IMG/VR virus record: IMGVR_UViG_2534681773_000022
Direction: 5' to 3' (one strand)
Length of the DNA stretch: 50,514 nt
Source: a virus
Taxonomy: Duplodnaviria > Heunggongvirae > Uroviricota > Caudoviricetes
The notes under the pieces are model-generated. The model was not told the DNA's origin. It worked only from the letters and a program-made list of their open reading frames with translations, and did no database searches. The translations under genes were made by a program, and so were the position numbers. Positions within the stretch are counted from its first letter, which is position 1, and the number at the start of each line of letters is the position of its first letter. Of this stretch, positions 9,798 to 13,322 are shown piece after piece.

Positions 9798-10153
9798 GCG
9801 AGATTAATTATCAGGAAGGGCATGAAAAGGCAGGGCAGGCAAAACCAGTGGCATGGCGATATCGCTACGTGAAAAAAGGCGTTACAGACTTTCAGGGGAA
9901 GCAGTGGGTTGGTGACTGGAAATATGTACCGACAAAAGAGGATTGCAACGACGGACCGAACTATGAAATTCAGGTGTTATTCACTGCCCCGCCTGTGCCA
10001 CTGACACCAGAAGGATTGATTAAAGCAGTGCGTTTCTATGAACAGGTAAAGCGTGAGAATCCGCCAGTCGAAACCGGAGCATGGAAAGACGCTGTTGACT
10101 GGGTGCTCAAAGAGGCTTGCCAGTCTGTAAACATTGGCATCAAAGGAGAGTGA
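9794..10153 (+). CDS. Hypothetical protein
   Basis: 119-aa ORF; its 3' end lies in a 22-bp repeat that also ends the next gene. Confidence 0.45.
   Translation: MSEINYQEGHEKAGQAKPVAWRYRYVKKGVTDFQGKQWVGDWKYVPTKEDCNDGPNYEIQVLFTAPPVPLTPEGLIKAVRFYEQVKRENPPVETGAWKDAVDWVLKEACQSVNIGIKGE
10132..10153. repeat. 22-bp direct repeat CATTsGCATCAAAGGAGAGTGA, copy 1 (gene-cassette boundary)
   Basis: Near-identical copy at 10626-10647; each supplies the last codons, the stop and the RBS for the next gene. Confidence 0.6.
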
Positions 10154-10155
10154 GA

Positions 10156-10647
10156 ATGCAAATTTCACCGGTTACTCTTCGTGTTGCGAAGGCGTTTATA
10201 TCCAGACATCACCGACACAATAAACCCCCGGTGGGGCATAAATTCAGCATTGGTCTGAGAAATGATGCCGGAGAATTGATAGGTGTGGCGACAGCCGGTA
10301 GACCTGTTGCACGACATTTGGACGATGGATTAACGCTTGAAGTAAATCGCACATGTACCACAGGAGAACGCAACGCTAACAGCGCGCTTTATGGTGCTGT
10401 CTGGCGGGCAGCAAAGGCTATGGGTTATCAACGTTGTATTACGTACACCCAGGCAGATGAATCAGGAGCATCTCTCCGCGCAGCTGGTTTTGTTCGTGTG
10501 AAAGAGCTTCCTCCAAGAAAAAGCTGGGCGGAATCAAGCGTCGCCCTGCGGAGTAAACGCGATCCGGTCGGAAACGGTGGTGTTCCTCGTGTGCTCTGGG
10601 AAATCAGGAGAATGAGTACCACTGGCATTCGCATCAAAGGAGAGTGA
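10156..10647 (+). CDS. Hypothetical protein (cassette bracketed by 22-bp direct repeats)
   Basis: 163-aa ORF with AAGGAGAG RBS; family not recognised from sequence. Confidence 0.5.
   Translation: MQISPVTLRVAKAFISRHHRHNKPPVGHKFSIGLRNDAGELIGVATAGRPVARHLDDGLTLEVNRTCTTGERNANSALYGAVWRAAKAMGYQRCITYTQADESGASLRAAGFVRVKELPPRKSWAESSVALRSKRDPVGNGGVPRVLWEIRRMSTTGIRIKGE
10626..10647. repeat. 22-bp direct repeat, copy 2
   Basis: 21 of 22 positions identical to 10132-10153. Confidence 0.6.
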
Positions 10648-10648
10648 T

Positions 10649-10912
10649 ATGGCAACTTTGACAAAAAAAGAACAAGCATGGTTGAGCGAATTACAGGACG
10701 TTCTTGATCGCTGTCCATCACCGAAAAAAATTGGTTTTTACACCATTGGCGATAAAAGCATTTACCTGTATGACCTGCGCCGCATGGATGAAATCATGGA
10801 GGCTCTTGATAATCGTTCGTCGATGGATTGGTGTGTTGCTGTTCATGATATGAATGCAGGGTTTGATGAAAAGATTTTGTTCCCCTCATCAGTTGAAAGC
10901 ACTGCGGGTTAA
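10649..10912 (+). CDS. Hypothetical protein
   Basis: 87-aa ORF immediately after the repeat. Confidence 0.45.
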   Translation: MATLTKKEQAWLSELQDVLDRCPSPKKIGFYTIGDKSIYLYDLRRMDEIMEALDNRSSMDWCVAVHDMNAGFDEKILFPSSVESTAG

Positions 10913-10922
10913 GGAGTAACAC

Positions 10923-11907: not shown

Positions 11908-11989
11908 TGCAGCGGGTGCTTGAGGCTATCTGTCTCAGGCATGAACACCAAAAGGCAGATAGAGAAAAGCCCCAGTTAACATTACGCGT

Positions 11990-12060
11990 CCGGCAAGACG
12001 CTTAACATTAATCTGAGGCCATATCTATGCTCTACACACGTAGGTTAGCCTCTTACGTGC
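11990..12060 (-). ncRNA. sok: Predicted Sok-like antisense RNA region (position inferred only)
   Basis: Type I hok/sok loci encode a short antisense RNA over the mok start and leader; no promoter was located with confidence. Confidence 0.25.
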
Positions 12061-12239
12061 CGAAAGGCAAGGAGAAGCAGGCTATGAAGCAGCAAAAGGC
12101 GATGCTAATCGCCCTGATCGTCATCTGTTTAACCGTCATTGTGACGGCACTGGTAACGAGGAAAGACCTCTGCGAGGTACGAATCCGAACCGGCCAGACG
12201 GAGGTCGCTGTCTTCACAGCTTACGAACCTGAGGAGTAA
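12027..12239 (+). CDS. mok: Mok: in-frame N-terminally extended reading frame that enables hok translation
   Basis: 70-aa ORF ending at the hok stop, mirroring the mokC/hokC arrangement. Confidence 0.55.
   Translation: MLYTRRLASYVPKGKEKQAMKQQKAMLIALIVICLTVIVTALVTRKDLCEVRIRTGQTEVAVFTAYEPEE
12084..12239 (+). CDS. hok: Hok/Gef-family type I toxin (51-aa membrane peptide)
   Basis: MKQQKAMLIALIVICLTVIVTALVTRKDLCEVRIRTGQTEVAVFTAYEPEE has the Hok-family hallmarks (N-terminal TM helix, conserved Cys, C-terminal AxFxAYE); AAGGAGAAG RBS. Confidence 0.85.
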   Translation: MKQQKAMLIALIVICLTVIVTALVTRKDLCEVRIRTGQTEVAVFTAYEPEE

Positions 12240-12483: not shown

Positions 12484-12843
12484 ATGGCACTCACTGAATT
12501 CGGTAAGGCCGTTAGAAAAGCGAGGATCGATACTGACAGTACTCTTCTGACTATGTCTCAAGAACTGGGCACTACGCCAGCGTTTCTTAGCGGTTTAGAA
12601 ACTGGTAGCAAAAAAATACCTCTGAAGTGGGTTAAGAAGATTGATTCTTACTTCAAGGCCAAAGGTGTAGAAATTGAAGGGTTACAGGAGTTAGCGGCAG
12701 TTGCGAATGACTCAGTTCCAGTAAACGGTTTGTCTCAGCAACAGAAAATGCTTGTAGCGGGATTCGCTAAGTCGCAGTTTACGCCGGAACAGCTAAAGAG
12801 TTTTGCAGATTTATTGCAAAAGATTAATAACAATGAGGGGTAA
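12484..12843 (+). CDS. XRE-family helix-turn-helix transcriptional regulator
   Basis: 119-aa ORF with an N-terminal HTH (LTMSQELGTTPAFLSGLETG); followed 2 bp later by a metallopeptidase gene. Confidence 0.7.
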   Translation: MALTEFGKAVRKARIDTDSTLLTMSQELGTTPAFLSGLETGSKKIPLKWVKKIDSYFKAKGVEIEGLQELAAVANDSVPVNGLSQQQKMLVAGFAKSQFTPEQLKSFADLLQKINNNEG

Positions 12844-12845
12844 TT

Positions 12846-13322
12846 ATGTATCAAATGAGAGGTAACAGGGTGTCACCGATGCAAGAAGAAGAAATAGCCT
12901 ACAGAGCTATAAACTTCTGTAATGCTATTGGTCTTACAGCCTCAAAGCGCAAAAGAAAGCGTTATGATATGTTCTTTGAAAGCCTGTCAATTTATGGGGT
13001 TACTCTTGACGTCAGGACCGACAAAGAGTGGGAGGCTCTGACGTATGATCTAACTATCGGACATTGTGACCCCGCTTCTCTAACAATTACGGTTCCCAAT
13101 AAAATATATGTGAATGCTTGCCTTGGGGAAGAGCATGCACTTGCTGTTATCTTCCACGAGCTAGGTCATTTGCTTCTTGGACACAAAGCAGTTTTACACT
13201 TTTCAGTTAAAGAACCTACTCGTATTGAGGATGCAGAATGGCAGGCAGATACATTTGCGGATATCGTACTGGAAACAATTGGCGTGAGAACACAACAGAT
13301 GTCGTTCGATTTTTATATGTAA
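12846..13322 (+). CDS. ImmA/IrrE-type zinc metallopeptidase (HEXXH motif)
   Basis: 158-aa ORF with HELGHLLLGH, the size and motif context of COG2856 peptidases that pair with XRE regulators. Confidence 0.65.
   Translation: MYQMRGNRVSPMQEEEIAYRAINFCNAIGLTASKRKRKRYDMFFESLSIYGVTLDVRTDKEWEALTYDLTIGHCDPASLTITVPNKIYVNACLGEEHALAVIFHELGHLLLGHKAVLHFSVKEPTRIEDAEWQADTFADIVLETIGVRTQQMSFDFYM

Follow-up and report, generated by a model that had tools for sequence, protein, structure and literature searches.

Mosaic phage genomes offer several precedents for short sequences that bound exchangeable genes. In the boundary-sequence model, a short conserved junction is the site of homologous recombination by which its flanking genes are exchanged (Clark et al. 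2001 and Susskind and Botstein 1978, as cited in PMC3029335 and PMC3233612). In T4-type phages, PeSL cassettes are built from promoter and terminator stem-loop motifs that flank nonessential genes, and excised mini-circles have been predicted for them (Arbiol et al. 2010, PMC2839356). Morons, by the description that PMC3029335 gives of Juhala et al. (2000), carry a promoter and a terminator. Here we examine a locus in the virus record IMGVR_UViG_2534681773_000022, a complete lambdoid prophage of 50,514 nt (the window, hereafter), in which a 163-aa open reading frame (ORF) of the XF1762 family is enclosed by two 22-nt direct repeats. These repeats are probably copies of a conserved boundary, or linker, sequence of enterobacterial temperate phages, one that serves the homologous exchange of gene cassettes.

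The left repeat, CATTGGCATCAAAGGAGAGTGA, and the right repeat, CATTCGCATCAAAGGAGAGTGA, begin 494 nt apart and differ only at position 5 (G/C). Their longest common exact run is 17 nt, and ungapped likeness continues beyond the 22-mers, at 84% across 37 nt. Searching the window with up to three mismatches returns these two copies only (coordinates in Table 1). Both are read in the same frame, as ...N-I-G-I-K-G-E-stop at the end of a 119-aa ORF and as ...G-I-R-I-K-G-E-stop at the end of the 163-aa ORF (10156-10647), and both contain AAAGGAGAG, a near-consensus ribosome-binding site, 6-7 nt 5' of the next ATG (10156 and 10649, respectively). An initial annotation, made from the letters alone, had proposed that the repeats flank the 163-aa ORF exactly and that each one carries the closing codons of one gene, its stop, and the Shine-Dalgarno of the gene that follows; the coordinates were confirmed, and the description holds on all these points. 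In the 15 nt after each stop (10154-10168 against 10648-10662), 10 of 15 positions match, the start codons being offset by one base and the encoded proteins being unrelated; this likeness may be left over from the recombination event that assembled the locus, or may be fortuitous.

The end of the 163-aa protein is foreign to its family. The nearest homologue outside E. coli, Pectobacterium ZF40 gp36 (72% identity), ends ...LWEVRR; homology stops at residue 152, which is where gp36 has its stop codon, while the E. coli protein goes on for another 11 residues, MSTTGIRIKGE. In mycobacterial prophages the homologues end ...LWEAV. Across representatives of 120 clusters, the family's conserved core stops at LWEI(R/K)(R/A), and the C-termini beyond it are hypervariable, mostly of 0-2 residues. 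A KGE ending occurs in four of the 120 clusters, all of them of the E. coli-type group, and MSTTGIRIKGE or near variants are likewise restricted to E. coli-type clusters, among which P0032 has the tail yet extends past it. Phage lambda Ea22, for its part, ends ...MMSDAGIRIKGE, encoded by GGCATTCGCATCAAAGGAGAGTGA, the same 24 nt as window positions 10624-10647. From these alignments we infer that the E. coli XF1762 gene lost its own stop and became fused to an ea22-type tail. An HNH-endonuclease-like gene in the IMG/VR contig L119 (1075-1608, on the minus-oriented strand) also ends ...GVAGIRIKGE and, judged by its sequence, is a second unrelated gene with a captured ea22 tail; an HNH endonuclease also adjoins the junction in some E. 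coli genomes (H318, H319). For annotation, tail capture of this kind explains the ...IKGE C-terminus shared by unrelated small phage proteins.

The junction extends far beyond this prophage. Its 17-mer core occurs at least 127 times on at least 120 contigs in IMG/VR, and the junction is found in lambda itself, in hundreds of E. coli genomes and at 152 places on plasmids. Among the IMG/VR matches listed, the upstream proteins form four clusters (ea22-like, 109; XF1762, 8; HNH-like, 1; other, 1) and the downstream proteins 16 unrelated ones. A repeat of only 22 nt, with one mismatch, might have been put down to chance or to a recent local tandem duplication without wider meaning, but this recurrence, together with the failure of all 100 dinucleotide-preserving shuffles of the window to give two or more matches, makes such an origin vanishingly improbable. 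Host range is taken here from the IMG/VR, phage and E. coli collections, a scan of species-representative contigs having been dominated by lambda contamination. In that scan the exact 24-mer appeared in 38 assemblies, at least 29 of which carry the identical phage-lambda ea22 3' end; they belong to unrelated taxa (Streptococcus, Streptomyces, Bacillus, Shewanella, Pseudomonas and others), on contigs that are often either about 1 kb long and of low coverage or 48.4-48.5 kb long, and this looks like contamination of public assemblies with lambda control DNA.

What is conserved at the junction is a sharply bordered island. In 58 non-redundant contexts of 150 nt, mean pairwise identity is 0.96 from -26 to 0 (the stop), 0.72 from +1 to +5, where the (T/G)ATG lies, and 0.32-0.37 outside. 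The island is thus about 30 nt long and straddles a gene border: from the final codons of one gene it runs through the stop to the start codon of the next. When G-I-R-I-K-G-E-stop was searched for at the protein level with degenerate codons, a single nucleotide version made up 107 of 122 cases, with the remainder, bar one, a single nucleotide off; synonymous positions 5' of the Shine-Dalgarno (GGC ATT CGC ATC) are also nearly invariant. A second recurrent gene junction, ...CGCAAAGGAGGCAA(C/A)CAGTGA followed by GC (tail ...RKGGN/KQ-stop), joins different genes in several phages (L074:6669, L119:1023 and L002:~964), and may be another boundary sequence of the same region.

Conservation of this kind could in principle reflect function rather than exchange. 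Selection might act on the C-terminal peptide (AGI+I/V..GE) and on the embedded Shine-Dalgarno, with the repeat a by-product that has no role in recombination and the borders coinciding since other joins would be lethal—in short, illegitimate recombination followed by selection. The ribosome-binding site so close to each start is what such a view would predict, and a loose motif, A-G-I-(K/R/Q)-(I/V/L)...E, is kept across genus pools despite differing nucleotides. Some slot exchanges, moreover, use Shine-Dalgarno-stop-start microhomology alone, and illegitimate recombination is a serious alternative for phage mosaicism generally (PMC3233612, PMC3029335). Selection on the peptide is, however, difficult to square with near-invariant synonymous sites 5' of the Shine-Dalgarno, or with a tail that is missing from most XF1762 members and is modeled with low confidence. 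On either side, between genes that are unrelated, a few bases are enough for identity to fall from 0.96 to about 0.35, and random illegitimate joins would not regenerate an island with such borders. Nor is an RNA structure predicted at either junction (folding z-scores 0.11 and 0.18). We consider this explanation improbable. Since XF1762 relatives outside E. coli lack the tail (their core ending LWEIR(R/A)), synonymous sites are near-invariant and the island of about 30 nt lies between unrelated flanks, the shared IKGE appears to be junctional rather than functional, as the initial annotation had supposed. An RNA element as such was ruled out by the same z-scores, the only Rfam match being to the sok RNA further downstream.

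Mosaic breakpoints, located by local BLAST against the window, coincide with the repeats. Phage 689R5 is homologous to the window as far as 10153 and again from 10636, with a different, ea22-like gene of 441 nt in between, and the homology of phage pPE4 ends at 10148. The Stx1 phage AU5Stx1 shares only 10622-10653 (32 nt, 100%), between otherwise unrelated genes; Kapi1 shares 10135-10651, the matching of both Kapi1 and TL-2011a ending at 10651; and other phages begin to match at 10622-10636. The XF1762 cassette itself is seen with two left-junction types and three different right neighbors, a reassortment that lends indirect support to recombination at the island. What fills the slot varies accordingly: XF1762 (494 nt), the ea22-like 441-nt gene (689R5 and L193), two small genes including one for a DUF4014 protein (L190), or nothing at all. 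The record for pPE4 (PP818812.1, 'Actinobacillus phage vB_Apl-pPE4') is 94% identical over 749 nt to the E. coli prophage region and has hok and ead/Ea22-like genes; the Actinobacillus host stated for it looks doubtful.

Empty slots were sought with a 102-nt synthetic deletion junction as query against complete E. coli genomes. Matches came either in two pieces 596 nt apart, with XF1762 present, or in one piece at 100% coverage, marking an empty site, and many matches cover only half the query, beginning with the repeat's first base or running out just past the repeat. The three empty sites inspected (O104:H4 FDAARGOS_349, 2013C-3342 and MS8345) belong to P2-like prophages, with gpA/ParM on one side and the portal gene on the other. 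At these sites the 87-aa gene, 97% identical to window 10626-10915, comes straight after an ea22-like gene of 143 aa that is homologous to window 10006-10153 at 89% identity. The junction between them reads CATTGGCATCAAAGGAGAGTGA and then TATGGCAAC, the exact deletion product predicted. The presence of lambdoid-type ea22-like genes (143 and 87 aa) in P2-like prophages shows that these small genes are exchanged between phage families.

The same architecture is found in other phage pools, with other alleles of the tail. XF1762 homologues end ...AAGIKVEVK in Klebsiella (P0034), ...AAGIQVIEGEDGE in Salmonella (P0033) and ...ATTAGIKLQIEGE in an Enterobacter-type metagenomic contig (P0006), and at each of these loci (L195, L197 and L200, respectively) the upstream gene ends with the same local ea22-type tail as XF1762. 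The exact direct repeats that result measure 23 nt in Klebsiella, 26 nt in Salmonella and 31 nt in the Enterobacter-type contig. The 31-mer local tail occurs in seven different left and right contexts and the 26-mer in at least nine, while the Klebsiella-type tail was found in 101 non-redundant contexts, with conservation limited to about 33 nt ending GAGTGATG. By these comparisons, the repeat-flanked XF1762 architecture is reproducible and its tail alleles are pool-specific. In three contigs (L194-L196), the Klebsiella XF1762 cassette adjoins a KwaA/KwaB (Kiwa defense) gene pair on the opposite strand.

In all four lineages, then, the XF1762 tail copies that of the gene immediately upstream, though the tails differ between lineages, and this pattern invites a different explanation. 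XF1762 could be mobile, now or once, inserting at ea22-like 3' tails by staggered breaks or template switching; the repeats would then be target-site duplications, independent scars of 22-31 nt rather than sites of homologous exchange. Direct repeats do flank the unit in every lineage, its start codon takes up the canonical start position of each local island, and most phages have one tail-bearing gene, so that the adjacency is unexplained by arrays. Yet the unit encodes a GNAT-fold protein alone, with no transposase, recombinase or endonuclease, and has no terminal inverted repeats. A 'duplication' that varies from 22 to 31 nt is likewise awkward for insertion, as are Kapi1-type phages, with their different tail types at the left and right junctions, and the HNH gene, which bears the tail without a matching left copy. 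Furthermore, these islands are also found around other genes, with 843-1401 nt between copies. Target-site duplication therefore strikes us as unlikely. With its single GNAT-fold ORF and no inverted repeat at the unit ends, the locus is not a transposon; nor is it an attC-like site. Of the 12 spacings at two-copy loci, six are the 494-nt XF1762 unit.

The reading we favor, of a conserved boundary sequence used for cassette exchange, would unfold in two steps. Its unit would be an island made of the last 7-8 ea22-like codons (...A-G-I-R-I-K-G-E), the stop, an embedded strong Shine-Dalgarno and the next start codon. The first step would have been an illegitimate join at ...LWEIRR, fusing XF1762 to an ea22 tail at the cost of its own stop. 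Bracketed by islands from then on, XF1762 could be moved, replaced or deleted by homologous recombination as a clean, in-frame, translationally coupled cassette. Phage single-strand-annealing recombinases of the Red-beta/RecT type, acting on about 23-27 nt of identity, would be the likely agents. We infer homologous recombination at the island, the acting recombinase and the order of events from sequence comparison. Minimal efficient pairing segments of 23-27 bp for Red-beta and 31-34 bp for RecA are on record (PMC3945230), and the canonical island, at 26-32 nt, is at or above the first and near the second.

Several observations weigh against this reading. The 17-nt exact run in the window falls short of the published pairing minima; spontaneous intramolecular deletion should therefore be rare here, an expectation consistent with the finding of no near-isogenic deletions. 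Specifically, when a 986-nt synthetic deletion query was matched against complete E. coli genomes, 5,426 in number, the best-40 and even-step lists contained no near-isogenic lambdoid prophage with a clean deletion, all high-coverage matches in them being in two pieces and carrying XF1762 or another insert. The empty sites inspected sit in a different, P2-like backbone, and of the upstream gene they have only the final ~125 nt in common with the window. Some alternative cassettes have only AAAGGAGAGTGATATG, or just TGATATG, in common at the right border, so the full island is not always used; and a single tail copy in 128 of 141 sampled loci indicates that the island is not a general, array-wide linker. 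Finally, homologous exchange gives no account of how XF1762 takes on the local tail allele in each genus pool. The initial annotation had foreseen a clean deletion that preserves coupling, and had suggested as a check the presence or absence of exactly this unit in related prophages. The idea is supported, given that the predicted junction exists as one uninterrupted match in complete E. coli genomes; the check is positive for the empty P2-like sites and for the alternative inserts in near-isogenic prophages, though not for a near-isogenic clean deletion.

It is conceivable, if rather speculative, that the ea22-type tail islands amount to more than a passive substrate, namely a dedicated and selected system of cassette exchange that works without an integrase, in which a pool-specific 'address' of about 30 nt, homogeneous at synonymous sites, renders fused foreign genes (XF1762, HNH) exchangeable. 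We would rate this bolder proposal as doubtful. In a stronger version still, XF1762 itself may target the junction, duplicating it on insertion by some mechanism; such self-targeting would explain why, in four lineages, XF1762 ends with a copy of its immediate upstream neighbor's tail.

The bracketed gene is, by sequence and by model, a full-length member of the XF1762 family with a predicted GNAT fold closest to that of Mom. The 163-aa ORF matches NCBIfam NF045478 (XF1762) at 5e-61 (204.7 bits against a cut-off of 50; residues 3-136) and PHROG 1384, 'Mom-like DNA modification protein'. Its score against the Pfam Mom family (PF25680), 22.4 bits, is below the gathering cut-off of 27.1, and some close homologues of the protein have a precomputed PF25680 match. 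An AlphaFold model (55 homologues) reached a pLDDT of 84.6, low in the loop 121-140 and in roughly the last 12 residues. The best match of this model in the Protein Data Bank (PDB) by Foldseek was phage Mu Mom (8bv8; E 2.4e-8, TM 0.74), followed by many GNAT acetyltransferases; a sequence search against solved structures gave no match at E<=1. A literature search for XF1762 returned no papers mentioning the family, and PADLOC, run on the four genes around the repeats, gave no defense-system matches. The GC content of the cassette is 0.513 as against 0.42-0.49 in its neighbors, with an undistinctive GC3.

Table 1. Features of the repeat-bounded XF1762 locus in the window.
Feature	Coordinates	Strand	Remarks
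Upstream ea22-like gene, 119 aa	9794..10153	+	PHROG 660/26213/250 matches; N-terminus MSEINYQ... like lambda Ea22 VSEINSQ...; tail ...SVNIGIKGE-stop
Left boundary repeat, NIGIKGE variant	10132..10153	+	Last 7 codons, TGA, Shine-Dalgarno for the XF1762 gene
XF1762-family Mom-like GNAT-fold core (predicted), residues 1-152, ending ...LWEIRR	10156..10611	+	NF045478, PHROG 1384, fold match
11-codon tail MSTTGIRIKGE plus stop on XF1762	10612..10647	+	Foreign to the family; ea22-type copy
Right boundary island, canonical lambda-ea22 form CTGGCATTCGCATCAAAGGAGAGTGA-T-ATG	10622..10651	+	Includes the repeat 10626-10647
Downstream 87-aa gene, PHROG 1714	10649..10912	+	Translationally coupled to the cassette; commonest right neighbor of the island

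Around the cassette, the 3' ~125 nt of the upstream ea22-like gene are those held in common with the 143-aa gene of the P2-like prophages, and the gene after the 87-aa gene encodes a DUF551 protein. Synteny with the PCN033 prophage at ompW places the region between replication genes (HTH_36, DUF977) and hok/sok, DUF968, RusA and Q, and by this comparison the cassette region takes the position of nin. Window 11914-12239 contains a type I toxin-antitoxin module, hok/sok: the sok RNA (RF01794, 117 bits) spans 11914-12089, and 12027-12239 is a Hok-like ORF. Between this module and the DUF968 gene, at 12484-13322, lie an XRE-type helix-turn-helix (HTH) gene (119 aa) and a Peptidase_M78 / ImmA-IrrE gene (158 aa), a pair that gives weak CapH/CapP-like PADLOC matches and is missing from the otherwise syntenic PCN033 prophage.

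How, then, does this locus compare with described systems? It is best regarded as a well-documented new instance of a known concept, to which it adds a coding tail grafted onto unrelated proteins and distinct alleles in each enterobacterial pool. It is also an unusually clean and quantifiable case: an island of 30 nt whose flanks are near-random in dozens of contexts, with pool-specific alleles, and two unrelated genes that have visibly captured the island as a peptide tail. If our reading is right, both mechanisms of mosaicism would be seen to act one after the other, illegitimate fusion making the cassette and homology then spreading it. A 494-nt unit with defined islands of 22-32 nt is, moreover, small enough for direct testing.

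The initial annotation had described the arrangement as a modular moron junction in a nin-like region, and each half of that description survives in part. The position between replication genes and Q is that of nin, but the gene content is of the ead/Ea22 type. As with morons, an extra gene is present or absent at the same position among related phages, between genes that are adjacent elsewhere. A consensus-only scan, however, found no plus-strand promoter-like site before 10156, and terminator-like matches were at shuffle expectation and inside the gene. The classical moron label is therefore ruled out: promoter or terminator signals belonging to the gene do not exceed chance, and it is translationally coupled in an operon.

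PeSL cassettes (PMC2839356) are similar in that short motifs are repeated through a plastic region, and recombination between neighboring motifs inserts, deletes or replaces single genes with their expression signals kept. The island differs from PeSL in having neither promoter nor stem-loop, preserving translational coupling in place of a transcriptional unit. With the lambda ea22 3' end, the right island shares an identical 24 nt. The lambda tail, however, ends a genuine Ea22 and has its first ATG 32 nt downstream, with no tightly coupled start, whereas the tail in the window ends an unrelated GNAT-fold protein and has a duplicate 494 nt upstream. The cargo, too, departs from its nearest structural relative: compared with Mu Mom (8bv8), the protein is shorter and only about 10% identical in sequence, its Mom-like fold being a model prediction.

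The closest parallel remains the boundary, or linker, sequences of lambdoid phages, for which literature searches combining ea22 with boundary terms returned nothing specific and in which context PMC9836094 mentions neither breakpoints nor ea22. Like them, the island is a short conserved stretch at gene borders with unrelated neighbors and coinciding mosaic breakpoints. Unlike them, it is largely coding—a tail of 7-8 codons together with stop, Shine-Dalgarno and start—and has been grafted as a peptide onto GNAT-fold and HNH-like proteins, with distinct alleles in the E. coli/lambda, Klebsiella, Salmonella and Enterobacter-type pools.

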